IMG/VR virus record: IMGVR_UViG_2778261231_000006
Coordinates: 1 to 36,223 of that record
From: a virus
Taxonomy: Duplodnaviria > Heunggongvirae > Uroviricota > Caudoviricetes
Length of the DNA: 36,223 nucleotides
Direction: 5' to 3' (one strand)
This document shows positions 3,592 to 34,626 of the stretch, one piece after another. How positions within the stretch are numbered: the stretch's first letter is position 1; the number at the start of each line of letters is the position of its first letter. The notes under the pieces were generated by a model, which saw only the letters and a program-made list of their open reading frames with translations, was not told the origin of the DNA and ran no database searches. The position numbers and the translations under genes are program-made.

Positions 3592-6039
3592 TTAACCGTC
3601 ATGCATCATGCTGGCACGGGCGCGCACACGTTTATCCCGCTCGTATTTTTCGAGCGCATCCTGTAACTGGCGGTCAAGCTGTGTCCCCGGCGCAGTACCA
3701 CCCGTCAGGCTGATGTGATATTCGTTTTTACTCTGGTCCACATAAGAGCGGCCAGCCGGTGCCGTGACCGGCTGATAAGCCTGATAGCCTGCATAAGAGC
3801 TGGTCGCCGGAATATAACCACCGCTGCCATACGTGGCGGCTTGAGTTCTGGCGGCGGTCTGGTCAAGTGTGTCTGACTCTTTGTTGATAACACCGAGTTT
3901 TTCCAGTACCCAGTCAATACCGCTGCGCAGTTTGTTGAACGCATTAAGCGGCAGCATCAGCGCGTCAGCCAGTGCCTGCCCGAACATGACCCCCGTGTCA
4001 CGGCAACTGTTCAGGGTGTCCTGAGTGGCTTTGACCGGAGCAATCAGGTTTTTAAACCACTGCCACGCGGCCTGTAACTTTTCACCCAGCCAGTCAAACA
4101 CCGGCTTAAGTGGCGTGAACAGTTCCCCCACCGGCGCAAATGCCACTTTCAGCCCTTCAACCACACCGCCAAAGAATGCGCTGACAGGCTCCCAGTATTT
4201 ACGGATAAGCAACGCCCCGGTGACAATTGCGGCCACCACGGCCACAACCGGCCAGCTAATAGCCCCGATGGCGGTCATAACAGCACTGCCAACCGTCGTG
4301 AAGACTGCCCCCATTGCGCCTGCTGCCGCGATGATGGCATTGATGCCGGTGATAACCGGCCAGGCTACGAGGCCAATGGCACCGATGATGCCAGTCAGCG
4401 CCAGCGCGCCACCGGCAATGATGCCGATGGTTGACGCCAGTGATTTGTTTTTCTGGATCCAGCCGTCGAGTTTTAACACATACTTTGTGGCCGTCTGCGT
4501 GAGCTTACGCAGCGCGCCTTCCTGCTGGTCAAACAGGTCAGTCCCCACTGCCTCATAAGCGGACTGAAACTCTTTAAAGTCACCGCCTAGGTTGTCCTGC
4601 ATGATATTTACCAGCTTGGCGGTCTTCCCGTCTGAGGCTTTAAACGCAGCGGTCAGTTTGTCCAGCTTTCCGGTTGAGGCGGCAGTCATCAGCACGGCGG
4701 CGGCTGAGCTGGCCTCCTCCCCGAAAATAGTTTTCATGTATTCAGCCTGCTGGGCAGTACCGAGCCGGTTTTTCTCAAAACTGGCCTGCATTTCTTTCAG
4801 AATGGTAAATATTGGCCGGGTGTTTCCCTTGCTGTCTGAGGTTTTCACTCCAAGCTCTTTGAGTGCATCCCATGCTTTTCCCGTCGGTGCCTGCAGGCGG
4901 CTTAACACGGCACGGCTTCCCGTCCCCGCCATTGAGCCTGTGATTTTTGCATCATGCAGCGCCCCGACCATTGCGGCGGTTTCTTCAATGCTGACACCGG
5001 CATTTTTTGCCACAGGTGCGGCATAGGTCAGCGCATCGCTCATGCCGTCAAAATCGGCGGCGGTTTTGTTCATCGTCATGGAGAGAACATCCCCGATATG
5101 AGCGACCTTATCGTTTGAAAGCTGAAAGGCGGATTTCATCCCCATCAGCAGGGCGGCGTTTTCTTCCATCGTGCGGCGGTTCGCCAGCGCCATATTCAGC
5201 GTGACCGGCGTTGCCGCCTGAATGGCATCAACATCCCCACCCGCTTTCGCGATGATTATCTGTGCACCGGCCGCATCATCCGCCGAGGCGGCGGTATTGT
5301 CGCCGAGCTGGCGCGCCTGTTTGCGTAGTGCGGTCATTTCGGCGGAGTCTTTTGCCACTCCGAGCACGGCCTGCAATTCTGAGTTTTTCTGCGCAAACTC
5401 ATAACCGGGCATCAGCAACTTAACTCCGGCCATCGTTCCCGCCGCCGCAATCCCCACACCGGCAGCGCCTACTGAGGCCATATTTCCGGCCAGTTCCTTT
5501 CCGGCCTGATAACGCTGTTTGACTGCGTTAAGTTTTGCCTGTTGCGCACTGACACGCGCCAGCGCGTCGCGCTGACGGTTAAGCTGTGCGGTGGTTTCAC
5601 TGATACGTTTTTTCAGTCCCTGCTCATCATGTGCAAGATTGCGGGTATTAATTCCCACAGCGGCCAGTTCCCGCTGCTGGCGTTTAACGGAATCCGTCAG
5701 GCGGTTATATTTCGCCTGTAAGTCCTCCGCCGCTCGCTTTGCGGATTCCAGCACTTTCGCCTGAGCACGGGTCGGACGTTCGGTGTTTTTAAACTGTGTG
5801 GCAAGGGCTTCGGCTTCCTGCCGTGCCTTTTCAAGTGCATGACCAGTCACGGCGAGCTGCGCACTGGTCTTGCGAAATCCCTCAATACGGGATGCGTGAC
5901 CGTTCAGCTCGCGCAGTGATTTTTGTGTTTCCCGGATATCCCCCGACAGCGACTTGCTCGCTGTGCGGATGGATTTAAACGGGCGGGATGCCTGGTCAAC
6001 AGCCCTGAGCAATACCTGTAATTTTACATTGTTACTCAT
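3592..6039 (-). CDS. T: Tail tape-measure protein gpT
   Basis: 815 aa, coiled-coil N-terminal half, Ala/Gly-rich hydrophobic core, position between E' and U. Confidence 0.93.
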   Translation of the reverse strand: MSNNVKLQVLLRAVDQASRPFKSIRTASKSLSGDIRETQKSLRELNGHASRIEGFRKTSAQLAVTGHALEKARQEAEALATQFKNTERPTRAQAKVLESAKRAAEDLQAKYNRLTDSVKRQQRELAAVGINTRNLAHDEQGLKKRISETTAQLNRQRDALARVSAQQAKLNAVKQRYQAGKELAGNMASVGAAGVGIAAAGTMAGVKLLMPGYEFAQKNSELQAVLGVAKDSAEMTALRKQARQLGDNTAASADDAAGAQIIIAKAGGDVDAIQAATPVTLNMALANRRTMEENAALLMGMKSAFQLSNDKVAHIGDVLSMTMNKTAADFDGMSDALTYAAPVAKNAGVSIEETAAMVGALHDAKITGSMAGTGSRAVLSRLQAPTGKAWDALKELGVKTSDSKGNTRPIFTILKEMQASFEKNRLGTAQQAEYMKTIFGEEASSAAAVLMTAASTGKLDKLTAAFKASDGKTAKLVNIMQDNLGGDFKEFQSAYEAVGTDLFDQQEGALRKLTQTATKYVLKLDGWIQKNKSLASTIGIIAGGALALTGIIGAIGLVAWPVITGINAIIAAAGAMGAVFTTVGSAVMTAIGAISWPVVAVVAAIVTGALLIRKYWEPVSAFFGGVVEGLKVAFAPVGELFTPLKPVFDWLGEKLQAAWQWFKNLIAPVKATQDTLNSCRDTGVMFGQALADALMLPLNAFNKLRSGIDWVLEKLGVINKESDTLDQTAARTQAATYGSGGYIPATSSYAGYQAYQPVTAPAGRSYVDQSKNEYHISLTGGTAPGTQLDRQLQDALEKYERDKRVRARASMMHDG

Positions 6040-6459
6040 TCGTGTTTCCGCTTCGCCGGAGCGCCTTTTCGCGCCATGTGATGAGTTCGGTCAGGCTCAT
6101 GGGATACAGTTCTGATGGCGGCCAGTGAAATATCACTGCCACATCCGCCATCAGGTCATCGACCGAGAGATTTTTCGGAAACGTCACTGCACCGAGTTCG
6201 GCGACAAAAAACCGACCACCTTACCGGCCAGCGCCACAAGGTCAGGCAGTTCCAGCGCGGCGACTTCCTGCTCGGTCAGCATCGGTGCCGTCATGCGCGG
6301 CAGCACTTTAATCAGTGCATCGACTTCGGAGTTCGCGACTGCAGCCAGACTGACACCGCGCAGCGTCCCGGCATTGGGTTTCATCAGCGTGACCTGTTCG
6401 ATAACCTGCTCACCACGTTTGACCGGATTGTCCAGGGTAATGACGTTTTCTTTGTTCAT
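6032..6459 (-). CDS. E+E': Tail assembly chaperone E+E' made by programmed -1 frameshift (about 142 aa)
   Basis: After the slippery heptamer the -1 frame stays open to a TAA at 6032..6034, overlapping the T start; total length matches P2 E+E'. Confidence 0.75.
6184..6459 (-). CDS. E: Tail assembly chaperone gpE (91 aa)
   Basis: MNKENVITLDNPVKRGEQVIEQVTLMKPNAGTLRGVSLAAV, recognised as P2 gpE. Confidence 0.9.
   Translation of the reverse strand: MNKENVITLDNPVKRGEQVIEQVTLMKPNAGTLRGVSLAAVANSEVDALIKVLPRMTAPMLTEQEVAALELPDLVALAGKVVGFLSPNSVQ
6205..6211 (-). other. Slippery heptamer TTTTTTG for the E/E+E' -1 ribosomal frameshift
   Basis: Plus strand CAAAAAA at 6205..6211, i.e. TTTTTTG on the coding strand, near the 3' end of E. 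Confidence 0.75.
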
Positions 6460-6515
6460 GGTTTTCTCACTTCTGAATCGGGGTTAACCGGTCAGCCAGG
6501 CTGACCGGATGAAAA

Positions 6516-7034
6516 TCACAGGCCGATATTGCGGCGGTGTTGCTCCAGCCGGTCGACGCCGTTCACCTTCTCAATCATGTTGATGGTGTCGATTTCGACC
6601 AGCTCCTTACCGTCCATCGTCAGCCGGAAATAGGTGCAGACCACGGAGATTTTCGACTCGGTGTCTTCTCCCTGTTTGCCCTCGCCGGTGTCGATTTCTT
6701 TCTGACGTCCACGCATGACCACTTCGACGGCCACCGTTTCGCCGGTATCGTCGCGCTGGTAAGAGCCTGCAAAACGAATCGGCACGGCATCCACACCGGT
6801 TGCGGCGTAAAGCTCCCAGATAACCGAATCCGGGAAGCCACCGAGCGACCACTCCATTGACAGCGCATCGTCATCAAGGCCGAGGTCTACCGGTGCGCTG
6901 CCGTTCATCCCCGCACCGCGATAGTTTTCGAGCTTACGGGTCAGTTTTGGCAGCGTGACGGACTTTGCAACGCCCTGATAGCTGTAGCCGTTCAGAAAGA
7001 CGTTCATTAACTTGAGTTTGCGCGGCATTGCCAT
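6516..7034 (-). CDS. FII: Tail tube protein gpFII
   Basis: 172 aa, MAMPRKLKLMNVFLNGYSYQGVAKSVTLPKLTRKLENYRGAGMNG. Confidence 0.93.
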   Translation of the reverse strand: MAMPRKLKLMNVFLNGYSYQGVAKSVTLPKLTRKLENYRGAGMNGSAPVDLGLDDDALSMEWSLGGFPDSVIWELYAATGVDAVPIRFAGSYQRDDTGETVAVEVVMRGRQKEIDTGEGKQGEDTESKISVVCTYFRLTMDGKELVEIDTINMIEKVNGVDRLEQHRRNIGL

Positions 7035-7046
7035 CGGTCAGGCTCC

Positions 7047-8237
7047 TTAATTGCTGTTAACCGAGGTGACCAGATTTGCCAGGTATTTATCGGTAATACG
7101 CTGGCGCAGGGTCAGGTTTTCAAGAGGAGGCACCGGTGTATAGTCGTAGTCGATATACAGTTTTCCTGCCTTGAGGGTTTCCGCATCGTTGGATTCTTCG
7201 CTGAACCAGCAGGTCGCATCCACGATATAGCCGTTTGTTTTCAGCTCACGGAATTTGGCATTAATGCCGTCAACGATGTCGCGAATCAGCGTTGCGGTGA
7301 TGGGCTTATCCACCGCCCACATGTGCGCCTCAGCCATCGTGTCGGCCAGCACCTGCGCAGTGCGGGTGTAGTTTTCAAAGAGGAACAGCGGGTCATCAGA
7401 GCAGGTACGGTTACCCCAGAAGCGGAAACCGTCGCGGCGAATCAGCGTTGTGACGCCTGACTCGTTAAGCAGGTCAGCATCGGTGCCGGACTCCTGCAAA
7501 TCCCAGAATACAGATGCGCTGATGCCGGTAACACCGTTTACCCCGACGTTGGACAGCGTTTTATGCCAGCCCTGCTCCTGGTCGATTTTAGCGCGCAGAC
7601 CCAGCGCACGGGCGGTGGCATACGCGGTGGCGGTGGTACTGGTGACCGTATCCCATGCGAGGAAATCCGGCCAGATGACCATCAGCTCACGCTGGCTGAA
7701 ATTCTGGCGGTAGGCTTTCACCTCGGAAATGGTCTTACAGCCCCATGCGCTGATATATCCGAAAGCGCGCAGCTTCTGACAGACTGATGCCAGTGCAACA
7801 GCCACCTCTTTGGTATCCAGCCCCGGCACACCAAGAATACGCGGTTTAACACCGGTTACCGACTCCGCCGCCAGCAGGGCTTTCAGTCCGGTGTACTGAC
7901 CGTTTTCGTCAGTGGTGCCGATAATATTGGAAACGGTCTGCGCGAGTTTCGTTTCCTCGTCATCACCGGTGCCGTCTTCCACGCGCACGACAACGGTGAC
8001 CGGTTTTGACTGGTCAGCGATGGCCTGCAACGATGCCGCCAGCGTGCCTTTTTTACCGGCCTTTGCAATTGCGCTCTGCACATTGGTAATCAACACCGGT
8101 TTATTGAGGGGGAAGGTTTCCGCATCTGCATCGCTGGCCGTGCAGACCATGCCGACAATGGCAGTGGATACGGTGGAAATGACGCGGGTGCCGTCGTTAA
8201 TCTCCAGCACCTGCACGCCGTGATGATAGTCACTCAT
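7047..8237 (-). CDS. FI: Contractile tail sheath protein gpFI
   Basis: 396 aa, MSDYHHGVQVLEINDGTRVISTVSTAIVGMVCTASDADAETFPLNKPVLI. Confidence 0.93.
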   Translation of the reverse strand: MSDYHHGVQVLEINDGTRVISTVSTAIVGMVCTASDADAETFPLNKPVLITNVQSAIAKAGKKGTLAASLQAIADQSKPVTVVVRVEDGTGDDEETKLAQTVSNIIGTTDENGQYTGLKALLAAESVTGVKPRILGVPGLDTKEVAVALASVCQKLRAFGYISAWGCKTISEVKAYRQNFSQRELMVIWPDFLAWDTVTSTTATAYATARALGLRAKIDQEQGWHKTLSNVGVNGVTGISASVFWDLQESGTDADLLNESGVTTLIRRDGFRFWGNRTCSDDPLFLFENYTRTAQVLADTMAEAHMWAVDKPITATLIRDIVDGINAKFRELKTNGYIVDATCWFSEESNDAETLKAGKLYIDYDYTPVPPLENLTLRQRITDKYLANLVTSVNSN

Positions 8238-8883: not shown

Positions 8884-10698
8884 GTGACTAAATATATTTT
8901 CAGTATCAATGATTTAATTTTATCAAAAAATGCACAATTTTTTAAGATAAAAAAACCTTTATCTAGAAATAAAATAAAAAATCTATTTAGAAGCATATCC
9001 TCGATAAAAGATGGTGTCTTTCTTATAAATAAAATTAAATCTGAAGTTGTTGTAGATAATGGGAATTTAACTTACTCTTTGGTGTCTTTTAAAGTTCTAG
9101 AAGAGCCTTCATTTCTACAAGGCACTAGCATTTCAGAAAGCAAGTATGCGTATCTAATGATCTTGGAGGTTCAGGATTTTTTAATAATTTCGAAGAAAAA
9201 TGTTGATGCAATTGAAAGCGAGTTGGAAAGGTTCATAGAATACTTTGAGTTTGATAAATTTTCAAATTTTAATGGAAGGCTGAATCCTGAGTATGAAAAA
9301 ATTAGCATGAGGAATATGTCACTGTCAGATTCAGTGATAAGAAATAGAACAGTGGAAGCAAAAAATCTAAGTGGCATTCTTTCTCCTAACACGACTGGAC
9401 GTTCAATTCCAGGGACATTTAGAGTCAAGACAGGAAATGACATATTTACTTTAACACCAAATACTTCACGAATAGGCTACAAAGATAAAAAAGTGGATTT
9501 TTTTAATTTCTGCTCATGGGCAATAGCTACAGTAAATGAATTATCTAACACAGCCTCTTTGTCAAGTAAGCTAATGGCAGGTTTCTCTTCCCCTATTACT
9601 TTGAGTGAATTATTAGCAAAAAAAGTCAAGCCAAAAGCTATTTTTATAGATCTTAGCGAGTTGGATGATATGGTGCGTGGCACGTCCCATACTTTTACAC
9701 TAACAAAAAATGTGCCTCATGGAACGGTGACGTTAAGTTCTGTTGAACTTGACAAATTTTTCAATGGATTTAAATCATCATATTTCTTAGATGGTGAAAC
9801 GCTAACCAATTTAAGATTCAAATTCAAATGTCGTCTGAGATTCAATACTAAGGTTGTGACTATAGTATCCAAATATCTCGATGGTATAATGATTAGTGAA
9901 AATGGTTCTCAGTTAATGTCGCTTAGTAAATATATTAACAAGTTTAAGCCATTCACTATAACCTTCGATTCCCCCCAATATTGCTATCATGGTCGTTCGT
10001 GTTTTGAAGATAAAACGATGTTAAATAATTTGAATATTTTCCTGTCCGTTTTTGATGATAGCTTTGATTTTTCAACAATCAGATCGGAAAAAGAGAAAGA
10101 TGACAAACAATCTTATCCAGAAAATATTAAAAGATTTCCAGTGAGATCGCTATTTAGACGAGTGGAGAATATCTATTCAAATAAAGATGCTATTGTAATT
10201 TGTGATGATATGAATGATGAGTGGGCCGATCATATTGTGCTGGATATCACGACAGGAAATCCATCCATAAAGTTTATTCATTCTAAATATATTAAAAAAG
10301 AGAGCTATGGCGCCAGTAAATTTCATGAAGTTATAAGTCAAGCTTTAAAAAATATTGGCAGATTACATTCACCAAAAGAACTTTACCTTGATAAATATGA
10401 TAATGAATGGTCTTCAAAATATTTACAAACGCAGATTAGTAGAATTAGACCAATTGACACTTCCAGGAATGACATTGAGTTAGCTCTTGACAAAATTAAT
10501 GAGAGTCCGAAAACTAGTAGGGAGTTAATATTAGCTGCTCCATTTTTAAGAAAAAAAATGTTAATCGATGAGGTGGAAATCATCAAGAGAAATCAGTCAG
10601 CCAAACCTTATACTGTTCAGCTAATCTGGCTTATAAATACATTTTTGAGTGCATGTGTTGAGTACGGAGTAAAACCCAGCATTCTATGTAAGAAGTGA
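8884..10698 (+). CDS. Hypothetical 604-aa cargo protein at the Z/fun moron site; soluble, function unknown
   Basis: Long uninterrupted ORF in AT-rich DNA, GTG start 7 nt after AAGGA, antisense to the flanking late genes; no Walker A seen by eye; acidic segment VICDDMNDEWADHIVLD...IHSK around residue 440. Confidence 0.8.
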   Translation: MTKYIFSINDLILSKNAQFFKIKKPLSRNKIKNLFRSISSIKDGVFLINKIKSEVVVDNGNLTYSLVSFKVLEEPSFLQGTSISESKYAYLMILEVQDFLIISKKNVDAIESELERFIEYFEFDKFSNFNGRLNPEYEKISMRNMSLSDSVIRNRTVEAKNLSGILSPNTTGRSIPGTFRVKTGNDIFTLTPNTSRIGYKDKKVDFFNFCSWAIATVNELSNTASLSSKLMAGFSSPITLSELLAKKVKPKAIFIDLSELDDMVRGTSHTFTLTKNVPHGTVTLSSVELDKFFNGFKSSYFLDGETLTNLRFKFKCRLRFNTKVVTIVSKYLDGIMISENGSQLMSLSKYINKFKPFTITFDSPQYCYHGRSCFEDKTMLNNLNIFLSVFDDSFDFSTIRSEKEKDDKQSYPENIKRFPVRSLFRRVENIYSNKDAIVICDDMNDEWADHIVLDITTGNPSIKFIHSKYIKKESYGASKFHEVISQALKNIGRLHSPKELYLDKYDNEWSSKYLQTQISRIRPIDTSRNDIELALDKINESPKTSRELILAAPFLRKKMLIDEVEIIKRNQSAKPYTVQLIWLINTFLSACVEYGVKPSILCKK

Positions 10699-11474: not shown

Positions 11475-11711
11475 TTGCAAGGGAATAAGGGCGTTTGTGA
11501 AAGATGTAGTGAAAATACACCGTTCTTAATAAATGGCGATATCCCATATCTCGAAGTGTATCATGTGATACCTCTTTCTTTATCTGGTGCTGACACCATA
11601 AGCAATTGTGTTGCATTATGCCCGAATTGCCATCGGGCATTGCATTACAGTCAAAATTCGGAAGAGCTGATTGAGGAACTTTATATAAACATAAAAAGAT
11701 TGCAAAGATGA
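11475..11711 (+). CDS. HNH-nuclease motif ORF, probably a C-terminal fragment (open frame extends back to 11409 with no ATG/GTG)
   Basis: …RDPAVKSCVLQGNKGVCERCSENTPFLINGDIPYLEVYHVIPLSLSGADTISNCVALCPNCHRALH: CxxC…H…N…CxxCH…H pattern typical of HNH; TTG start only. Confidence 0.5.
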   Translation: MQGNKGVCERCSENTPFLINGDIPYLEVYHVIPLSLSGADTISNCVALCPNCHRALHYSQNSEELIEELYINIKRLQR

Positions 11712-16129: not shown

Positions 16130-16477
16130 TCAACTCACAGGGATGGTTAACGAAAGTGGCTGGCCGGTGTCGTTGTGCTGACCGGTTAACGTGACCGTCA
16201 TTCGCCCGTCAAAACTGCGCTCAGTGGTGACGGATGACAGGGTGACGCGGGGTTCCCATTTCAGCACCGCCATGTAACAGGCAACCTTAATCTGCAACTC
16301 AAGCGCCGGGGTCTGCGGCTGGTCAATCATTGATGCCAGCAACGAGCCGTAATCACGACGCATCACCCGTGAGCCGACCGGTGTGCGCAGGATATCGCCG
16401 ATACTCTGGCTGATATGCTCAAGGTCAGTGACAGTCAGGCCATCACTACGATTCATTCCGAGATAACGTGCTGTCAT
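16130..16477 (-). CDS. W: Baseplate wedge protein gpW
   Basis: 115 aa, MTARYLGMNRSDGLTVTDLEHISQSIGDILRTPVGSRVMRRDYGSLL. Confidence 0.92.
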   Translation of the reverse strand: MTARYLGMNRSDGLTVTDLEHISQSIGDILRTPVGSRVMRRDYGSLLASMIDQPQTPALELQIKVACYMAVLKWEPRVTLSSVTTERSFDGRMTVTLTGQHNDTGQPLSLTIPVS

Positions 16478-17103
16478 AAAGGACTCCCGGTTATGCCGCC
16501 GCTGTCGCCGGGGTGTTTATGGGTATGCAATACCTTACCGTTTGATGAAAGTTCACCACCGGTGTGTTCAATGTTGCCGCGCATCGTCCCGCCCTTCTGC
16601 ACTTCCAGCGTGCCGGTAATCAGCCTGTTTGTGCAGACCACCTCCGGCGTGTCCAGAGTGACACGGGTTGATGCTTTCACCGTGACCACGGGCACCGTGG
16701 CAGTAACAGAATCAGAAGCCGTCACGCTGGCCGTTTTAATTCCGCTTACCGTGAGTGCACTGGTTTCAGGTTCATACTCAATCACCGCCCCGTCAGGGAA
16801 ACGGATATGCAGGGCATCCGCCGACGCAGACGGCGCGGGGTTATCGCCGGAATAAATCCCCGGCAGAACGAACGCCGTGTCGAGTTCACCGCCCACGGCC
16901 AGAATCAGCACCTGTTCCCCCACGGAAGGTGCCCACCACGTGCGCGAACGTCCGGCGCGATGGGTCAGCCACTGAAGCCAGTCGGTACACATGCCGCCGG
17001 TCTGCACACGGCAGCGACCGGCGTTAAGGTCGGTTTCGACGATAATGCCGGTGCGAATCATATTGCGTATAAAGCGAAGTATTTCATTGTATTGTGTATT
17101 CAT
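16474..17103 (-). CDS. V: Baseplate spike/assembly protein gpV
   Basis: MNTQYNEILRFIRNMIRTGIIVETDLNAGRCRVQTGGMCTDW; start set at the internal ATG 17103 to match P2 gpV. Confidence 0.9.
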   Translation of the reverse strand: MNTQYNEILRFIRNMIRTGIIVETDLNAGRCRVQTGGMCTDWLQWLTHRAGRSRTWWAPSVGEQVLILAVGGELDTAFVLPGIYSGDNPAPSASADALHIRFPDGAVIEYEPETSALTVSGIKTASVTASDSVTATVPVVTVKASTRVTLDTPEVVCTNRLITGTLEVQKGGTMRGNIEHTGGELSSNGKVLHTHKHPGDSGGITGSPL

Positions 17104-17189
17104 TCGAGAATAATGATTCTGTACAATCCCAAAGTAAATCACGCAACGATTTCTGATGCACAGAACAACAAGGGACAACAAAATCCATA

Positions 17190-18263
17190 ATGAACACTTA
17201 CTTTTTCTCATCAAAAACAATGAAAGAATTGTTCAAAGATTATCTGGTCTTTTTGAACACGCTGACACCCAGCACAACCTTTGAATCAAACAGAAACAAA
17301 ATAATTGCTCAAGCAATAGACTTCATTTCTGAAAACCCAGAAGATTGGGACAAAAAATCCCAGTACAACATTGTCAGGATTGGTAATACCTTTACAAGCT
17401 TATTAAAAGAAAAGGGAGAGGATAACAACAGCATCAATTTTATATTCACTTGTTTTTTTAGATTTATTATTGAGCCAAGTATTCTCTCTCCTGAGACAGA
17501 TACTTTCTTTTCACCACTAAAAACCATCAAGGATTTCGCGCTGTATAACTATAATGAATTCGATGAACAAAGCAGAGCACAGATAGACTTTTCTCTTAGA
17601 GAACTACCATTAGCAATGGTTAAAGAAGTTTTAAGCTCAGGCAATGTGGACACATATAAAAAATATATTGATAGTTTAAGCGAAGGTCGTCAATTTTTCG
17701 AAAAATGCGAGTCCTTTTTAAAAGAACAACATACCAAAATAGAGTCAATTAAAGAATCATTGAAAGGGTATGAGGTCGCATTTAATTTTGTTGGATTGTT
17801 TGAAGGCTTTAATTCACTTGGCAAAAAGAAAGATCGTGAAATTTTACTATCAAGAATAATCCTTGTCATCTTAGCTATAATCATCCCATCCCCGCTGATA
17901 TACTATGGAGTGCATAAATTACCAACTCTCGAAACGACAAATGCTGCCACATATTTCATGTCAGCACTACCTTTTGCATCAGTCACATTGATTTTCATTT
18001 ATTACTTTAGAGTTGTACTGATAAATCACATATCGTTACGAACTCAGATTATGCAAATAGAACTCAGAAAGAGCCTTTGTCAGTTTATTCAGAGTTATAG
18101 CGACTATTCCTCAGAGATAAGGAAAAACAATCCGGAAGCGCTTTCAAAATTTGAAGATGTCGTATTTTCGAACATCATGCTATCCGATGATAAGATACCA
18201 TCTACATTTGATGGCATAGAGCAAATAGCATCGTTAATCAATTCATTAAAAAATGGCAAGTAA
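17190..18263 (+). CDS. Hypothetical 357-aa cargo protein with two predicted C-terminal transmembrane helices, at the S/V moron site
   Basis: AT-rich ORF antisense to the late operons; hydrophobic stretches ILLSRIILVILAIIIPSPLIYYGV and ATYFMSALPFASVTLIFIYYFRVVLI; own terminator downstream. Confidence 0.75.
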   Translation: MNTYFFSSKTMKELFKDYLVFLNTLTPSTTFESNRNKIIAQAIDFISENPEDWDKKSQYNIVRIGNTFTSLLKEKGEDNNSINFIFTCFFRFIIEPSILSPETDTFFSPLKTIKDFALYNYNEFDEQSRAQIDFSLRELPLAMVKEVLSSGNVDTYKKYIDSLSEGRQFFEKCESFLKEQHTKIESIKESLKGYEVAFNFVGLFEGFNSLGKKKDREILLSRIILVILAIIIPSPLIYYGVHKLPTLETTNAATYFMSALPFASVTLIFIYYFRVVLINHISLRTQIMQIELRKSLCQFIQSYSDYSSEIRKNNPEALSKFEDVVFSNIMLSDDKIPSTFDGIEQIASLINSLKNGK

Positions 18264-18270
18264 TGATAAA

Positions 18271-18293
18271 AGGCCAATAACTGGCCTTTTATT
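18271..18293. terminator. Bidirectional intrinsic terminator (AGGCCA-ATAAC-TGGCCT plus T-run) after the 357-aa gene and after S
   Basis: Perfect 6-bp stem 18271..18287 followed by TTTTATTTATT on plus; T-rich on the minus side as well. Confidence 0.6.
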
Positions 18294-18365
18294 TATTAAC
18301 ATGAAAATTCAAAATGAATTATGCTAATCAATTGATTTCTATCTTATATTCTCAGATGATTAAAG

Positions 18366-18818
18366 CTAACGATTCAGGTGAGCCAGGATAATCTCTTCAA
18401 TCATCTGCACATCCTCACCGGTAAAGCCGAGCAGAGGACGCGCCGGATAATCAATTTTCTTACCGTCTTTCCGGGTTTCTTCCGACAGACCGAACTGATG
18501 CACGCTGGCGATTTTCGGTGACTTCCCGCCGTAAAATTCCATTGATGCCTGTTCAGGGCTGGCGCGGATATGCAAAAAACGACTGGTGATAAGTTTCGCA
18601 AACATTTTTCGCTTAACGCGACCGGTCTTTTTTCTGGCGCTCTGCTGCTGACGTGGCGCGTAGGGTGTGCCGTCCGGGGCTTTCTGAGCCATCACCCGGC
18701 GCTGCTGACTCTGCCGCAGACGTTTCGCCAGTTCGGCACTCAGTCGCCGACGCCCTGACGGTGACAGCGATTCAGTCAGTCCGGCCAGCCGGTCTTCAAA
18801 ACGCTTAAACTCATTCAT
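18366..18818 (-). CDS. S: Tail completion protein gpS
   Basis: 150 aa, MNEFKRFEDRLAGLTESLSPSGRRRLSAELAKRLRQSQQRRV. Confidence 0.92.
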   Translation of the reverse strand: MNEFKRFEDRLAGLTESLSPSGRRRLSAELAKRLRQSQQRRVMAQKAPDGTPYAPRQQQSARKKTGRVKRKMFAKLITSRFLHIRASPEQASMEFYGGKSPKIASVHQFGLSEETRKDGKKIDYPARPLLGFTGEDVQMIEEIILAHLNR

Positions 18819-19281: not shown

Positions 19282-19531
19282 TTTCGTCCTGACAGTGTTT
19301 AATCATTTTTACCTGGCTGGCACAGCGTGCCAGCGCGTCCTCAAGCTGCCGGATATCGGCACTTAAATCGCCGTTCTTCTGCGGGTCACTGCCCGGCATC
19401 GGGCAAAGGCTCACTTTCGGGCAGGCGTTGTGGACAATCACTGGCGTCAGTGCAGGCCGTGCGCTGGTGCAACCGGCGCACAGCATCAGGCAGGTCAGCA
19501 CCGTACCAGCGGCGAAAATCCTCGTTTTCAT
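19241..19531 (-). CDS. lysC: LysC (Rz1-like outer-membrane lipoprotein spanin), embedded out of frame in lysB
   Basis: MKTRIFAAGTVLTCLMLCAGCTS lipobox; start at the internal ATG 19531; 96 aa as in P2. Confidence 0.8.
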   Translation of the reverse strand: MKTRIFAAGTVLTCLMLCAGCTSARPALTPVIVHNACPKVSLCPMPGSDPQKNGDLSADIRQLEDALARCASQVKMIKHCQDENDAQTRQPAQGAD

Positions 19532-19811
19532 TAAGTAACCTCGTGATGGTTTTCTCGCGCTGTGCTTCACGCTTCGCAGCGTTCTCCAGCTCCTGACGCA
19601 GAGCCACCTGCGCCAGCTCGTTTTTGTCTGCTCTGGTGAGCGCAACATGAAGCTGATTTTTCAGCATGGTGATGGTCGTCTGCTGTTCACTGGCGACGTT
19701 GTTCGCCCTGTCCAGCGAGGCGCGCAGGCTGGCATTTTTATGTTTCACCAGAAACAGACCGGCCACCGCCAGCGATAACAACACGACCAGCACAGTCATC
19801 AGCTTTGACAT
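19386..19811 (-). CDS. lysB: LysB (Rz-like inner-membrane spanin)
   Basis: 141 aa, MSKLMTVLVVLLSLAVAGLFLVKHKNASLRASLDRANNVASEQQ, N-terminal TM plus coiled coil. Confidence 0.9.
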   Translation of the reverse strand: MSKLMTVLVVLLSLAVAGLFLVKHKNASLRASLDRANNVASEQQTTITMLKNQLHVALTRADKNELAQVALRQELENAAKREAQREKTITRLLNENEDFRRWYGADLPDAVRRLHQRTACTDASDCPQRLPESEPLPDAGQ

Positions 19812-20224
19812 GGTTCCCGCCCCTCAAAACGCTGACGGCAGGCCGTACGTATCAGCCGGAAGAACAGCGACGCCACGAGATAAATCAGCGCGGTAAAAAT
19901 CCACCCGGCAGCGACCAGCGAGATAAACGTCGTCACCATCACCACCAGAGCCGCCGCCCGTCTGCGCCACGGCACCGGCTGCAAAAACAGCGACGCGACA
20001 ATCTTCACGGCCAGCGATTCCGGCGGCAGCTCCCGTCCGTAGCGTTCCAGTACATACTCCGTGGCATACACGCCGACACCACCGGCAACCACACAGATAA
20101 CCGTCGCCAGAATCGCCCAGGCAGCGACAAAACTGACGGCCACGCTCTGCGGGTAAATCAGGGACAGTGCCAGCATCAGCGCCAGCGACACGTGCAGCAT
20201 CAGTGAAAGGGATAATTTTTTCAT
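19799..20224 (-). CDS. lysA: LysA (lysis-timing membrane protein, antiholin-like)
   Basis: 141 aa, multiple hydrophobic helices, position between K and lysB. Confidence 0.85.
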   Translation of the reverse strand: MKKLSLSLMLHVSLALMLALSLIYPQSVAVSFVAAWAILATVICVVAGGVGVYATEYVLERYGRELPPESLAVKIVASLFLQPVPWRRRAAALVVMVTTFISLVAAGWIFTALIYLVASLFFRLIRTACRQRFEGREPCQS

Positions 20225-20238
20225 GGTGTTTACTCCGT

Positions 20239-20736
20239 TTAAGCCGGTGCGCCGCCAGCGGTACGCCAGACGGTGACCAGTTTTTCCAGTGAATGCTCAC
20301 GCTGACCGTAACCGGCACCCGGCAGGGACGCCCAGATATTGCGACAGCGTGAAATGGCGCGCTCAATGCGTCCCGCCCGGATGTCATCCAGTGCACCGCG
20401 TTCGCGGATCAACTGAATGGCAAGTCTGTCCTGTGACAACGGACTGAAATCCGGCAGGGCAAGCTGTTTGCGGTAGTGCGGCCAGAACAGGTAAAGCTGC
20501 TGATAGCGACCGGAGGCCGTGGATTTTTCACCGCGACGGTTAAACACCTTCGCCGGTCGGCCATGTGCGAACGGGTGGTCACTGTAGTCGGTGAAGATTT
20601 CCAGCTTCCCGTCCAGTCCGGTGACTATCACGTCATAGCCCCGGTTTTTCGTCAGCGGGTGATTCGCCGTCCCTTCGGACACGGCCAGCATGTCGAGAAA
20701 GGCAGCGATATTCTGATGCGTGTTAATTTCCGGCAT
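20239..20736 (-). CDS. K: Endolysin gpK (lysozyme-like)
   Basis: 165 aa, MPEINTHQNIAAFLDMLAVSEGTANHPLTKNRGYDVIVTG. Confidence 0.92.
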   Translation of the reverse strand: MPEINTHQNIAAFLDMLAVSEGTANHPLTKNRGYDVIVTGLDGKLEIFTDYSDHPFAHGRPAKVFNRRGEKSTASGRYQQLYLFWPHYRKQLALPDFSPLSQDRLAIQLIRERGALDDIRAGRIERAISRCRNIWASLPGAGYGQREHSLEKLVTVWRTAGGAPA

Positions 20737-21017
20737 TACTGTTTCCCCCTGCCCTTAAAGCGGCGCTGAATGGCAATCTCAATCACCTGATAACCGGCGA
20801 TACCCAGCATGGAGCCGATGCCGCACACCGCAGGCAGTGACAGGTCAGGAAACTGCACCAGAACAACACCGGCAACCATCGAGACAAAACCACCGAGCAA
20901 CATGCGCCCGATAAACAGACGCGGGGTGATGGGTTCACCACCGGCAAGCACCTTGCCGACAACAATCAGCACCCCAATCATGAAAAGCGACAGGACGCTT
21001 TTTTCTTCTGCTGTCAT
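20736..21017 (-). CDS. Y: Holin gpY
   Basis: 93 aa, hydrophobic, MTAEEKSVLSLFMIGVLIVVGKVLAGGEPITPRLFIGRMLLGG. Confidence 0.9.
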   Translation of the reverse strand: MTAEEKSVLSLFMIGVLIVVGKVLAGGEPITPRLFIGRMLLGGFVSMVAGVVLVQFPDLSLPAVCGIGSMLGIAGYQVIEIAIQRRFKGRGKQ

Positions 21018-27897: not shown

Positions 27898-28794
27898 CTA
27901 TGATTTCGACACAACTATTTTCCCCAAATCAAAACTAAATTCGACATCCCCATTTACGATATTTTCATTTGTCACATGCTCATCAAAAAGGTCACTAACA
28001 TCATACCCCGACTGAAACACTGGGCTCATGATAGCCACGTCGGTGAATGGCTCTTTTTCATGTGTTATATAATATTGACCATAAACATTTGCAGATTCAT
28101 CTGCATCATTAAGACTAAGGACTGTTTTTGCTTTGACTTCAGGCATCAGAGAAAAATCAATATTATTCAACAAACACAGTAAGATGCCTGCTATTGTTCT
28201 CCTGTTATTATCAAGCGGCATCAAGTCCACCCCTGGAATCTCCTTCCGAAGCAATATTTTCAGCTCATTAAATAAAGAGTCGAACTTAATTGCGTCAGAA
28301 CAATTGAGTAACGACAAAGCTTCATTAATCATTCGCCCTTCATTGGAACCAATTTCTGATGTTAACTTACAAACACCATCATTAACAATATACGATTTTT
28401 TGTTATTAAGCTTCTTCCTCGCTGTAATTACCTGCCCCCCCTTTAAGTTTAACTTCTCCTTTAAAAACTCATCACTGAACATTCTTAATTGCAGTCTGAT
28501 TAATGTAGGTAAGTATTTCGGGTATTCATTTAACTCTGGTTTAACAGCATGCTTGTCGCGTCCAAATTTTAAACTTAATAACAAATGATTCCTCAGCATG
28601 ATATCCTTTATCTCGCCTTGATCTCTCCGATGATTATGGGCAACAAAACTCCCAATTTCAAAAATACACTTGGGCGCACTCGGCAACTCACGGGCCGTAA
28701 CAAAAAGAACATCAATATCACTATCAGTGAAACTCCCATCCTTTAATCTTCTCAACACTCTCTCTATTCTTGAGATTGCTTTACTTTTATTCAT
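27898..28794 (-). CDS. Hypothetical 298-aa cargo protein at the cos-proximal (tin/old) moron site; function unknown
   Basis: AT-rich ORF MNKSKAISRIERVLRRLKDGSFTDSDIDVLFVTARELPSAPKCIFEIGSF…; ATG with upstream AAGG/GAAAGAA; no TM helix or nucleotide-binding motif seen by eye. Confidence 0.75.
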   Translation of the reverse strand: MNKSKAISRIERVLRRLKDGSFTDSDIDVLFVTARELPSAPKCIFEIGSFVAHNHRRDQGEIKDIMLRNHLLLSLKFGRDKHAVKPELNEYPKYLPTLIRLQLRMFSDEFLKEKLNLKGGQVITARKKLNNKKSYIVNDGVCKLTSEIGSNEGRMINEALSLLNCSDAIKFDSLFNELKILLRKEIPGVDLMPLDNNRRTIAGILLCLLNNIDFSLMPEVKAKTVLSLNDADESANVYGQYYITHEKEPFTDVAIMSPVFQSGYDVSDLFDEHVTNENIVNGDVEFSFDLGKIVVSKS

Positions 28795-29120: not shown

Positions 29121-29336
29121 TCAACAACGTGGTAGCAGTGCAATTTTAGACTGTTCTATATCGTTAAACCGCACGTAATTATCCCGGACTATTTCGGCAC
29201 ACCCGACCAACTCGTCGGGCGTCAGATTTTCGTTGACCATAATCTGCTGTAGACGGTGAACAATAGCCATCAGCTTGATATTTTTAGTGTTATGTTGCGG
29301 TATCTCGCCTAGTATTCTGTGCATTATCCAAGCCAC
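29121..29336 (-). CDS. Small hypothetical protein (71 aa), start overlaps the end of the upstream DUF3850-like gene
   Basis: ORF MAWIMHRILGEIPQHNTKNIKLMAIVHRLQQIMVNENLTPDELVGCAEIVRDNYVRF; overlap suggests coupling; no homology recognised. Confidence 0.35.
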   Translation of the reverse strand: MAWIMHRILGEIPQHNTKNIKLMAIVHRLQQIMVNENLTPDELVGCAEIVRDNYVRFNDIEQSKIALLPRC

Positions 29337-29779
29337 CCGTTTTGCTTTGCACGCTCAATCTGTTCATCTGAATAGTTCCATGCTCCATCCGTGGCAACCA
29401 TTGCCCCGCCAGACATCCCCGTCTCTGGTTCATACATAACAGCAAGGCCGAGCTGATGCATAATTTCATGATTAATTCTGAATACCAGACCACGCTCACT
29501 AAGTTCTTTCCAGTTCACAATCTCATATGCGCCTGTATTAAGCAGCTCAATACTTAGCAAGACATAATCTTCCAGCCAGTCTGACAGGTCAGTAACATCT
29601 GTTATCCGGGCTTCAACCTTTCGCCCCGTATACACACCCTGCACCCATTCATGCAAAATCAACGTGTCCCCGCGCTCATAATTACGGTCATTTTTCCGAA
29701 ACTCTGCGCGTTTCTTTCCTTCCAGCACAAGGTCGAAATATTTTGCGTGCAGCTTTACCTCGTGAATTTTTGCCATCAT
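29324..29779 (-). CDS. DUF3850/ASCH-like domain protein with C-terminal HExxH motif, translationally coupled to A
   Basis: MMAKIHEVKLHAKYFDLVLEGKKRAEFRKNDRNYERGDTLILHEW resembles DUF3850; INHEIMHQLG contains HExxH; ATGATGG start overlaps the A stop TGA. Confidence 0.65.
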   Translation of the reverse strand: MMAKIHEVKLHAKYFDLVLEGKKRAEFRKNDRNYERGDTLILHEWVQGVYTGRKVEARITDVTDLSDWLEDYVLLSIELLNTGAYEIVNWKELSERGLVFRINHEIMHQLGLAVMYEPETGMSGGAMVATDGAWNYSDEQIERAKQNGWLG

Positions 29780-33136: not shown

Positions 33137-33637
33137 TTAATGCAGATATTGCTCTGGTTTTACCGACGTCAGAATTGTCGGTGCATACTCAAACAGGCTG
33201 AACAATTCACGTAATGCACGGAATAAAGCATCACGCCAGTAACATGATTCTTCATTAATTCGCCAGTATGGCTGGTTGAATTCTTTTTCAGTCAATCCGG
33301 CATGCATAAATAAAGTACGACGCTGACTGACTGTTAAAAAACTAATATATGCATACTCACTTGCGCCAACCTGACGGCGTTTTGAGAATGCCCCACGCAA
33401 TTCATCAATTGCGCAAACCAGCCGTTCACGTTCGACGTCGTTCATTTCTTCAAAACGCATCGTTGCGTGACGCTGTTTTAACTGCGCATGGAAGCAAACC
33501 GTTAGCCGTTCGCGTTCCATCATCTGATTATAATAATCGCATGTCTCCTGCCAGCGAGGGACGGCCAGATGCTTACCAATTATCCGGCGCATAGCTGCTG
33601 GCTGTTTTTCAACGAGATTGAGCGTCATCACTGTCAT
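33137..33637 (-). CDS. B: Replication protein gpB
   Basis: 166 aa, MTVMTLNLVEKQPAAMRRIIGKHLAVPRWQETCDYYNQMMERERLTV. Confidence 0.9.
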   Translation of the reverse strand: MTVMTLNLVEKQPAAMRRIIGKHLAVPRWQETCDYYNQMMERERLTVCFHAQLKQRHATMRFEEMNDVERERLVCAIDELRGAFSKRRQVGASEYAYISFLTVSQRRTLFMHAGLTEKEFNQPYWRINEESCYWRDALFRALRELFSLFEYAPTILTSVKPEQYLH

Positions 33638-33828
33638 TTCCAGACCCTCCGGCTTTTCAGAAAGGTCAGAGCCTTTTTTAACGGACTCTGTTTTTTGGTG
33701 CGGATAATGATTCCCTTACGCCCCTTACCGTGGGTGATGGTGAAGTCAATCGCCCTGGGGCTTTCGTTACGCAATAACTGAGCAATACAACGAGGCTCAT
33801 TCATACGGTTCTCCTTAACGTGGTTCAC
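33634..33828 (-). CDS. Small early protein between cox and B (P2 orf78-like position), 64 aa
   Basis: ATGA overlap with B start; basic small protein. Confidence 0.55.
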   Translation of the reverse strand: MNHVKENRMNEPRCIAQLLRNESPRAIDFTITHGKGRKGIIIRTKKQSPLKKALTFLKSRRVWK

Positions 33829-34090
33829 CGAGACCTAACCACATCAACCAGCCGTCACGAATCTCTTTAGGACGGCTTTCATAAGCCAGTTTTAGTCCGT
33901 TATTCCATGCCGGAAGGTATACCCAATATTCACCAGCACGCCCCGATACTGACTGAGGGTCAGTAATCTCAATAACTGGTAATTTCCCTTTCTCAATCAT
34001 GCCCCTTACAGCTCTTGGAGTTTTGCCAATGAGTTTTGCAAACTCCTGATAAGGCACGGCATCAGTCACGCTTACAAGCTGTCTATTCAT
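33815..34090 (-). CDS. cox: Cox (excisionase / early repressor of Pc)
   Basis: 91 aa; …AVPYQEFAKLIGKTPRAVRGMIEKGKLPVIEITDPQSVSGRAGEYWVYLPAWNNGLKLAYESRPKEIRDGWLMWLGLGEPR matches remembered P2 Cox. Confidence 0.9.
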   Translation of the reverse strand: MNRQLVSVTDAVPYQEFAKLIGKTPRAVRGMIEKGKLPVIEITDPQSVSGRAGEYWVYLPAWNNGLKLAYESRPKEIRDGWLMWLGLGEPR

Positions 34091-34114
34091 CTGCTACGAT
34101 TCTCCCTTAGTGCT

Positions 34115-34133
34115 TCTAATGGCTCCTAATGGC
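34115..34133. promoter_or_regulatory. Candidate immunity operator: direct repeat CTAATGGCT twice with 10-bp period in the cox/C divergent promoter region
   Basis: tCTAATGGCTcCTAATGGCTaat; P2-type C repressors bind direct repeats overlapping the early promoter. Confidence 0.4.
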
Positions 34134-34211
34134 TAATTATTGCCTAAAAGGATAACTCCAGAAGCACAACATTTCATACCATCAGCAAGAAATTACGCAA
34201 TCGGAGTAATT

Positions 34212-34511
34212 ATGTCAATAGACGTTTCGGAGAAGTTGAAGCTAATCCGTGAATCTGAAAGGTTAAACCGTAAAGAATTCAGTGAATTAACTGGTGTAGC
34301 CTACAGCTCACTTTCGAGCTATGAGAGCCGGTCAAAAAACGCTGGAGTTGAAGCCATAATGAAGGTCTTACAACATCCTAGATTTACTAAATATACTTTG
34401 TGGTTCATGACTGATCAGGTAGCTCCAGAAGCCGGGCAAATTGCGCCCGCTCTCGCACACTTTGGGCAAAACGAAACAACGTCGCCCCACTCCGGTCAAA
34501 AGACTGGTTAA
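34212..34511 (+). CDS. C: Immunity repressor C (99 aa); N-terminal DNA-binding half diverged from P2, C-terminus conserved
   Basis: MSIDVSEKLKLIRESERLNRKEFSELTGVAYSSLSSYESR…FTKYTLWFMTDQVAPEAGQIAPALAHFGQNETTSPHSGQKTG; start at internal ATG 34212. Confidence 0.85.
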   Translation: MSIDVSEKLKLIRESERLNRKEFSELTGVAYSSLSSYESRSKNAGVEAIMKVLQHPRFTKYTLWFMTDQVAPEAGQIAPALAHFGQNETTSPHSGQKTG

Positions 34512-34626
34512 CAATTTATCGTGAATATATTCATCACAAGTGCCTACTATTGGTGGCTAAATTTCAGCCACCACGAAAAAAGCGATTAGTAGTAGCAAAA
34601 AAAAGTACCACTCGGAGGGTTTTCTG

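Follow-up and report, generated by a model that had tools for sequence, protein, structure and literature searches.

P2-like phages are recognised to bear three moron regions, one of which is the junction between the tail genes S and V (PMC6823313, PMC3091744). The hotspots of P2 are rich in defence genes and transmembrane effectors, as described with experimental validation for the other two slots (PMC9122126, PMC9519451); defence loci within the P2 late genes were reported in a 2026 preprint (10.64898/2026.02.27.708500), and integron cassettes encode phage defence (10.1101/2024.07.02.601719). Here, we present a computational analysis of the gene that occupies the S/V slot of a P2-like prophage in the IMG/VR record IMGVR_UViG_2778261231_000006, positions 1 to 36,223, and this whole stretch of 36,223 nucleotides is referred to as the window. 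The cargo gene encodes a predicted inner-membrane protein of 357 amino acids (aa), is a real and constrained gene, and is a self-sufficient, horizontally mobile single-gene unit on temperate phages, phage-plasmids and integrons. Its product is proposed tentatively, at somewhat under even confidence, as a candidate for a lysogen-expressed, one-protein membrane anti-phage defence factor.

In phage P2 itself the S/V slot holds orf30. Both slot genes are non-essential, low in GC content and placed on the strand opposite to the late operons, and both encode membrane proteins; unlike the cargo protein, which has 357 aa and a hydrophobic hairpin in its C-terminal half, Orf30 has 261 aa and three dispersed transmembrane (TM) segments, and no sequence relationship exists between the two. 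A preliminary description of the window, made from its letters, had held that P2 carries a nonessential orf30 in this slot and that the window carries something different; the P2 record agrees with the former, and kinship with Orf30 was tried and rejected at an hhalign probability of 0.2%. Because the cargo protein and Orf30 are unrelated in sequence, it follows that two unrelated slot genes are both AT-rich, antisense-strand genes for membrane proteins. In the P2 locus (L084), orf30 lies at 1094-1879 and its product is a predicted membrane protein with three hydrophobic segments.

The closest functional analogue may be AbiZ of the Lactococcus plasmid pTR2030. Durmaz and Klaenhammer reportedly predicted two transmembrane helices in AbiZ in 2007, as many as the cargo protein has. 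Like the cargo gene, abiZ is a single gene on a mobile element whose product has no recognisable domain or PDB fold match (PMC13064643). AbiZ cooperates with the phage holin to bring about premature lysis, which provides a plausible model for the mechanism of the cargo protein. The two differ in host phylum, and holin-dependent lysis is the phenotype of AbiZ. Membership of the AbiZ family is not supported, because the AbiZ model misses the cargo protein and matches only one of 132 diverse relatives (E=6.7e-4).

RexB of phage lambda, the two-transmembrane (2TM) effectors of CBASS, Pycsar and retrons, and SLATT proteins resemble the cargo protein in being prophage- or island-borne inner-membrane proteins with hydrophobic helices, the killing module of those effectors, and cytoplasmic regulatory parts. 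RexB and the 2TM effectors differ from it in needing a separate sensor or signal partner (RexA, a cyclase or a reverse transcriptase); RexB has four TM helices and the cargo protein two, and the latter gave no Pfam SLATT, RexB or PADLOC match. SieA (P22), Imm (T4) and gp15 (HK97) are likewise phage- or prophage-encoded inner-membrane proteins, which protect against other phages and are expressed independently of the late genes; these proteins are small and narrowly distributed, whereas members of the cargo family have about 355 aa, occur in several phyla and keep their conserved parts in regions predicted to be cytoplasmic. Old, Tin and Fun(Z) of P2 are, as is the cargo gene, low-GC genes in a fixed slot of a conserved backbone that are swapped between relatives, but their slots differ from S/V, and S/V is not described as a defence hotspot in the searched passages of PMC9122126 and PMC9519451.

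The cargo gene and its membrane protein

The prophage of the window is P2-like and is inserted in Escherichia coli between yegQ and yegR. The region is 100% identical to E. coli O19:H7 strain 730V1 (NZ_CP061764), in which an identical coding sequence is annotated as the RefSeq hypothetical protein WP_047657858.1. Late genes run on the minus strand as R-S and then V-W-J, with the cargo open reading frame (ORF) on the plus strand between S and V, and the V and S flanks share 96-97% nucleotide identity with P2. The interval 17104-18365 spans exactly the gap from the gpV start codon (17103, minus strand) to the gpS stop (18366), and it holds neither a second credible ORF nor an Rfam RNA family. 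The AT-rich, opposite-strand gene that had been proposed for this junction was borne out, with a GC content of 0.337 against 0.54-0.61 in the flanking tail genes (about 0.57) and 0.503 across the window. Translation is taken to start at the first ATG (17190) and not at the second (17220), which PGAP chose for one allele, because F6 is invariant across the family.

Two hydrophobic stretches, at residues ~218-240 and ~256-280, reach Kyte-Doolittle (KD) values of 2.48 and 1.97 over 19-residue segments. Both are present in 132 of the 132 diverse relatives, the minimum KD value of TM1 being 1.56, so that the two strongly hydrophobic helices of the preliminary description hold across the family. Lysine and arginine, averaged over the family, number 3.1 in the 15 residues that precede TM1, 1.3 within the loop and 3.7 in the 20 that follow TM2; the positive-inside rule therefore predicts both termini to be cytoplasmic and the loop alone, which varies from 7 to 35 aa in length across the family, to be periplasmic.

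AlphaFold2 (AF2) gave a mean predicted local distance difference test (pLDDT) score of 78.9 with a 59-sequence alignment and 89.6 with 132 sequences, the latter at a predicted template modelling score (pTM) of 0.59. The model is all-helical: a seven-helix bundle (9-149) is followed by a helix (152-231) that runs into TM1, and a return helix (252-313) begins as TM2 and gives way to another two or three, shorter ones. Confidence is lowest over the last ~35 residues in both monomer models, with pLDDT below 50 for residues 331-346 in the first model and 53-84 for the C-tail in the second, yet these residues are among the best conserved. Two details of the preliminary description had to be revised. 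In place of a single soluble N-terminal domain of ~210 aa, the model has a ~150-aa helical bundle and a ~45-aa long helix; and the C-terminal tail, which had been called short, comprises 77 aa and is, with the juxtamembrane motif, the best-conserved part of the protein.

Conservation is distributed very unevenly along the chain. Mean pairwise identity among the 132 relatives is highest in the juxtamembrane motif (53%), the C-tail (52%) and TM2 (41%), and it falls to 24% in TM1, 23% in the N-domain, 22% in the stalk and 10% in the loop. Invariant juxtamembrane residues are N199, F200, L203, G206 and K214 (59 sequences); in TM2, P261, Y271 and F273 are invariant and R274 and N279 nearly so. Most invariant residues of the family fall in the C-tail, where the motifs QIELRKSLCQFIQSY, KFExVxFSNIM and KIPSTFDGIEQ are found. 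In members from Pasteurellaceae and Moraxella the N-domain lies beyond tblastn detection and the C-terminal half is ~40% identical, with length and architecture kept.

Among four E. coli alleles of 93-100% nucleotide identity, the ratio of nonsynonymous to synonymous substitution rates (dN/dS) is 0.11-0.38 overall (about 0.13) and 0-0.05 in the C-tail, several allele pairs having zero nonsynonymous change there. An exhaustive search with a hidden Markov model yielded, at the 50% identity level, 926 clusters with E<=1e-3, of which 670 have E<=1e-30, and the best 150 matches listed are mostly ~355 aa long. The notion of a chance ORF in AT-rich junk, or of a decaying remnant, may draw on the defective appearance of the host prophage (an IS5 insertion and a truncated integrase) and on residue 173 (window 17706-17708), which is Cys (TGC) in the E. 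coli clade, Tyr in the Escherichia albertii allele and Trp in >90% of the family. It is refuted by the strong purifying selection, by full-length conservation in hundreds of clusters across phyla and by the confident AF2 model. Codon 173 represents a single-base change at a near-invariant W in a gene otherwise under purifying selection.

Database searches placed the protein in a family to which no function is assigned. Residues 20-356 match positions 32-387 of the 388 in phrog_9373, a phage family (E=2.1e-126), and all sources label the family proteins "hypothetical". Pfam, NCBIfam and PADLOC gave nothing significant for the cargo protein beyond sub-threshold TM noise (DUF3810, TrbE). Pfam and PADLOC searches with the 132 relatives singly gave nothing recurrent, the DUF5367 and DUF2207_C matches being TM or coiled-coil noise and one RTasSLATT match (E=0.035, one in 132) noise as well. 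A sequence profile search of the PDB returned nothing below E=0.5, and Foldseek searches of the PDB and BFVD with the first AF2 model (pLDDT 78.9) returned nothing below E=0.03. To our knowledge, PADLOC covers the systems of Rousset 2022 and Vassallo 2022, and the cargo protein is unrelated to any of them. A literature search by accession (WP_047657858, A0A3B7PGP4, phrog_9373 and the Yersinia phage proteins) found no paper, and the family protein has neither a signal peptide nor a secreted domain.

Several specific identities were examined and rejected. Holins are shorter than ~150 aa, and the cargo protein has 357 aa and is encoded outside the lysis cassette; the holin, endolysin and spanin genes of the prophage form a complete cassette elsewhere (window ~19386-21017). 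Neither a SLATT protein nor a 2TM effector of CBASS, Pycsar, retrons or DRT fits a protein that has no Pfam or PADLOC model match and no conserved partner. A toxin-antitoxin module was rejected on the single ORF of the slot, the unconserved neighbours in 80 genomic loci and the single-gene integron cassettes, and a P2-like structural or assembly protein on its absence from P2 and most relatives, the opposite strand and the lack of a structural family match. Homology to structural or lysis proteins, which would have told against the effector proposed in the preliminary description, was looked for in Pfam, NCBIfam, PHROGs, the PDB and Foldseek, and none was found.

Distribution, mobility and allele exchange

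The V/S flanks occur in 1585 of 5426 complete E. coli genomes (~29%), and the cargo gene in only 60 of these; it is absent from P2 and from ~96% of the E. coli prophages that share the V/S backbone. When 60 rows were sampled at even steps down the ranked E. coli matches, ~33 slots were empty (span 1155 bp), ~14 held an orf30-type insert (span 2029 bp) and a few had other sizes. This survey of the junction supports the cargo gene as non-essential and as placed at the known orf30, or S-V, moron slot.

No GenBank phage record carries a close copy. Homologues of 36-38% identity lie in the same slot and orientation in two Yersinia enterocolitica phages of other Peduoviridae genera, and prophages of Erwinia, Pectobacterium and Rouxiella also carry a family gene in the S/V slot. 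In IMG/VR, 154 viral contigs encode relatives; among the best 80 of these 154, the gene lies between V and S of P2-like phages in 66 (gpV 53-100% identical to that of the window), beside one of these two genes, where the contig ends or the other has diverged, in 5 more, and in a filamentous phage in 1 (L172). In two more of the 80, distant P2-like contigs (gpV ~37%), the homologue again lies between S and V but runs in the direction of the tail genes (L170 3450-4601, L181 8001-8966), which points to independent capture or inversion at the same junction.

Other temperate elements carry the family in other positions. A P2/186-like prophage of Moritella has a homologue between the integrase and CI repressor genes, and a filamentous (inovirus) prophage of Vibrio cholerae has one directly downstream of zot (L097 10001-11065; L098 7181-8245). 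The phage CTXphi carries the toxin genes ctxAB at the position after zot. A 388-aa subfamily is encoded antisense between replication genes (L086 4572-5738) in about 224 plasmids of Klebsiella, which are ~110 kb long and belong to the pKPHS2 / SSU5 type of phage-plasmid (e.g. NC_016838); these plasmids match annotated Klebsiella phage records in size and homologue type, and the subfamily is homologous to the cargo protein over almost its full length (hhalign probability 99.8%, E=8e-29). This Klebsiella gene is near-constant in the phage-plasmids yet hypervariable.

A genome survey with one genome per species gave 112 loci with relatives, of which 80 were kept, from Gamma- and Betaproteobacteria, Campylobacterota, Desulfobacterota, Nitrospirales and Bacteroidota; among them the V/S slot was found in Enterobacterales only. 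No conserved neighbour or partner gene emerged from the 80 loci, the next commonest neighbour cluster being present in 10, and for the neighbours Pfam matches indicate large families of paralogues, ABC transporters and two-component systems among them. The GC content of the gene is below that of its flanks in 76 of 78 loci, by a median of 14.5 points. The family also occurs as single-gene cassettes of Vibrio splendidus, a second Vibrio and Tolumonas, within arrays of attC repeats like the Vibrio cholerae repeat (VCR); in one locus (L009), VCR-like repeats at 5841-5898 and 7055-7112 bracket the gene at 6001-7065, and arrays of 8-14 attC-like repeats were detected by blast in L009, L045 and L093. 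Since blast detects poorly any repeats that are not of the Vibrio type, the number of integron-borne relatives is a lower bound. In Pseudomonas, one copy neighbours a Pf-like prophage and a TacA antitoxin gene, and further copies are isolated insertions, placed among housekeeping or transporter genes, behind a type VI secretion system (T6SS) cluster or close to an RloB gene. In several Pasteurellaceae (L063, L068, L070, L071, L080, L082), the gene occupies a conserved chromosomal site beside an imidazoleglycerol-phosphate dehydratase (hisB-type) gene, with no obvious mobile element.

Alleles were compared with their backbones in 60 P2-like contigs. Cargo identity tracks the backbone weakly (Spearman 0.36, against 0.65 between V and J); where the gpJ proteins are 85-95% identical, the cargo alleles have a median identity of 40%, and 21 pairs combine gpJ above 95% identity with cargo below 60%. 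Within one lineage of Klebsiella phage-plasmids, members of the subfamily are 58-94% identical. The weak correlation and the divergent cargo on close backbones together indicate that divergent family alleles are exchanged at a fixed site, and allele turnover of this kind is typical of conflict loci.

Junctions and signals of the slot and other cargo regions

The features of the slot and its flanks are collected in Table 1.

Table 1. Coordinates of the cargo gene, the parts of its product and the neighbouring features in the window.
Feature	Position	Strand	Basis
gpV, baseplate spike gene, left flank of the slot	16474..17103	-	annotated phage baseplate assembly protein V
Mosaic, AT-rich start of gpV (codons 1 to ~13), part of the imported segment	17064..17103	-	alignment with P2 and empty-slot prophage
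V-cargo intergenic region, 86 bp; PV late-promoter region and Ogr-box-like element	17104..17189	.	P2 annotation, alignment
Cargo gene, stop codon included; 357-aa predicted inner-membrane protein, WP_047657858.1	17190..18263	+	ORF listing
N-terminal cytoplasmic helical bundle, aa 1-150, variable; proposed sensor	17190..17639	+	AF2, mostly pLDDT >90
Long helix / coiled-coil stalk, aa 151-197	17640..17780	+	
Conserved juxtamembrane motif AFNFVGLxxGFxxLxxxK, aa 198-217	17781..17840	+	family alignment
Transmembrane helix 1, aa ~218-240	17841..17909	+	KD hydropathy
Short periplasmic loop, predicted, aa 241-255; poorly conserved, variable length	17910..17954	+	Lys/Arg counts
Transmembrane helix 2, aa ~256-280	17955..18029	+	KD hydropathy, conservation
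C-terminal tail, aa 281-357, conserved and predicted cytoplasmic; proposed as effector or oligomerisation module	18030..18260	+	conservation
Bidirectional intrinsic terminator, predicted; common to cargo gene (+) and S-containing late operon (-)	18261..18298	both	fold, U-runs on both strands
gpS, tail completion gene, right flank of the slot	18366..18818	-	P2 homology and annotation

A hairpin, AAAAGGCCA-ataac-TGGCCTTTT, lies at 18268-18290, beginning 5 bases past the cargo stop, and is preceded by an A-run and followed by a T-run. Its folding energy is -16.2 kcal/mol for the plus strand and -14.3 kcal/mol for the minus strand (z = -5.0 and -4.2), and 0 of 200 shuffles were as good on either strand. 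As the hairpin has U-runs on both strands, it is predicted to act as terminator for the cargo transcript and, in the other direction, for the late operon whose last gene is S; the bidirectional terminator of the preliminary description is thus upheld by fold energies, although a simple promoter/terminator scanner had missed it. The P2 record annotates the O-operon terminator at the equivalent place and lists within the same interval, in order, the putative O-operon terminator, the opposite-strand nonessential orf30, an activator (Ogr) binding site and the V-operon transcription start. By this comparison, the cargo gene sits exactly between terminator and late promoter, disrupting neither. An Ogr-box-like TTT-N12-ACA at 17150-17167 is one mismatch from the TGT-N12-ACA(AC) that the alignment finds conserved in the Yersinia and Pectobacterium slots, and an exact TGT-N12-ACA box is absent from the slot of the window. 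A possible divergent sigma-70 promoter for the cargo gene consists of a -10 element TACAAT at 17122-17127 and a weak -35 element TTCATT at 17099-17104, which overlaps the V start codon; this putative promoter was read by eye and was not called by the scanner.

The junctions were located by aligning the window to P2 and to an empty-slot E. coli prophage, in which V and S are 66 bp apart. On the right, homology to P2 and to empty-slot prophages is regained a few bases ahead of the S stop. On the left, the window is unlike both P2 and the empty-slot prophage in the first ~44 nucleotides of V and converges after codon ~13, the start of gpV being MNTQYNEILRFIRNM in the window and MNTLANIQELARALRNM in P2. 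The two alignments therefore delimit an imported segment of ~17064-18362 that brought its own V 5' end, a pattern that homologous recombination with another P2-like phage would give. The interval 17104-18365, with which the preliminary description had framed the cargo, stands as the exact gap between the V start and the S stop, but the foreign AT-rich segment begins inside gpV. By this import, recombination also replaced the start of gpV, an essential baseplate gene.

The prophage has further cargo regions. A 604-aa protein (8884-10698, plus strand) is encoded in its Z/fun hotspot, which is bounded by the sheath gene FI and the tail-fibre assembly gene G; the protein has no Pfam domain and matches the PADLOC single-gene defence candidate PDC-S71 (E=1e-218). 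The same hotspot contains a 51-aa HNH fragment (11556-11711). In its old/tin (TO) hotspot, which separates the portal gene from gpA, lies the gene of a 297-aa protein (27898-28794, minus strand) with no Pfam or PADLOC match, a second cargo gene of the prophage with no assigned function, and beside this cargo lies a DUF3850/ASCH and DUF7415 protein (29324-29776). An IS5 element (33287-34267) is found where the P2 early/immunity region would be expected, and the integrase (34336-35196) is annotated as truncated; the prophage is therefore probably defective, though its cargo genes are intact.

Candidate function and rival explanations

The tentative case for a one-protein membrane defence factor is argued from single-gene mobility, from membrane topology, from the pairing of a variable N-domain with a conserved module, and from repeated carriage by temperate elements and integrons. 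It draws also on the validated defence systems in the other two P2 hotspots, on the defence genes carried by integrons and on the PDC-S71 match in the Z/fun slot. In the scheme envisaged, the S/V slot would have acquired a single self-contained moron by recombination with another P2-like phage, and the prophage would express the cargo protein and so shield the lysogen from other phages. The variable N-terminal bundle, on its helical stalk, may sense a cue of infection, upon which the conserved hairpin and tail would oligomerise or shift in conformation and compromise the inner membrane; the resulting depolarisation or premature lysis would amount to abortive infection. Among modes of defence, abortive infection through membrane damage, with the N-domain as sensor, seems the most likely, and a conserved module that blocks a membrane step of infection the less likely alternative. 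Mobile carriage, the variable N-domain joined to a conserved membrane module, and allele swapping are consistent with defence or exclusion and do not prove either. An abortive-infection or exclusion effector was already the suggestion of the preliminary description, of which the non-essential, antisense moron cargo with its own terminator stands; the suggestion is a reasonable one, for which the grounds are now stronger, but no known defence model matches.

A number of observations weigh against defence. Neither TM helix has an obvious polar face that could line a pore, both being plainly hydrophobic, and no convincing sigma-70 promoter from which the cargo gene would be expressed in the lysogen was called by the scanner. 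PADLOC-DB v2.0.0 returned 0 families at E<=10 for the cargo protein, and the lone AbiZ match among the 132 relatives is not significant, ~0.09 such matches being expected by chance. Across the E. coli alleles the N-domain has a dN/dS of 0.12-0.33, without a sign of positive selection, and the near-invariant W173 is replaced by Cys in the E. coli clade. The low GC content is partly expected for a helical protein rich in K, I, N, F and Y. Outside mobile elements, many relatives stand alone among housekeeping genes or transporters and not in defence islands, and neighbours of defence type (GmrSD, KAP NTPase, HEC-06, dGTPase and PDC candidates) are a minority; the association with defence islands there is weak.

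The same lone insertions, one of them after a T6SS cluster, and the want of a match to any PADLOC defence model speak for a non-defence accessory or selfish membrane protein, be it a lysogenic-conversion or fitness factor (acting in envelope stress, in ion homeostasis or by interfering with a membrane machine of the host) or a gene of mild, addiction-like toxicity that hitch-hikes on mobile elements. Conservation of the cytoplasmic tail across phyla would suit a conserved cellular partner, and the copy after zot in the Vibrio inovirus holds the position of the CTXphi toxin genes. Enrichment in phage hotspots and integron cassettes together with allele swapping is, on the other side, more typical of conflict genes, and a signal peptide, a secreted domain and a partner antitoxin gene are all lacking, so that this explanation is judged credible though rather improbable. 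Superinfection exclusion without cell death, through a block of genome entry or of an early membrane-associated step, would account for a prophage-borne inner-membrane protein on its own transcription unit and for divergent alleles swapped between close backbones, and P2-like phages, inoviruses and phage-plasmids would all gain from excluding competitors. Nearly all conserved sequence is, against this, predicted to be cytoplasmic, and the tiny, unconserved periplasmic loop is a poor fit to meeting an incoming tail tip or tape-measure protein. The C-tail is kept from Bacteroidota to Gammaproteobacteria, including non-phage sites, which argues for an intrinsic activity or a universal target, and no similarity to known superinfection exclusion proteins was found in PHROGs or Pfam; exclusion of this kind is accordingly thought unlikely.

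A role intrinsic to the phage, as an accessory of lysis timing, tail assembly or anti-satellite action in lytic growth, would agree with long residence in the same slot across Peduoviridae, over gpV identities of 37% to 100%, with the adjoining PV late promoter and with the two distant contigs in which the gene is co-oriented with the tail genes. It is very unlikely nonetheless: P2 and most E. coli prophages with the same V/S backbone do without the gene, which mostly lies opposite to the late operons, so that late read-through would give antisense RNA; homologues occur in inoviruses, integron cassettes and chromosomal sites without tail genes; the lysis cassette is complete elsewhere in the window; and there is no similarity to structural or lysis families.

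Overall, the S/V slot has been known for twenty years as a moron site whose cargo has no assigned function, and the two studied hotspots have yielded many defence systems. The family to which the cargo belongs spans Proteobacteria, Campylobacterota, Desulfobacterota, Nitrospirota and Bacteroidota without a Pfam domain, a structural relative or a PADLOC entry, and it is self-sufficient on at least three unrelated kinds of temperate element and in integrons. One 1.1-kb gene with natural alleles of 31% to 100% identity constitutes a cheap and well-defined target, and the outcome could be a new membrane-acting immunity protein or, equally, a different phage-favoured membrane function. It is possible, rather than probable, that the cargo protein is the founding example of a new and widespread family of single-protein membrane immunity, in which a variable cytoplasmic sensor would be joined to an effector made of the conserved hairpin and C-tail, its alleles interchangeable among P2-like phages, filamentous phages, phage-plasmids and integron cassettes in several phyla. 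If the defence function is true, the S/V junction would be the third defence hotspot of P2-like phages.

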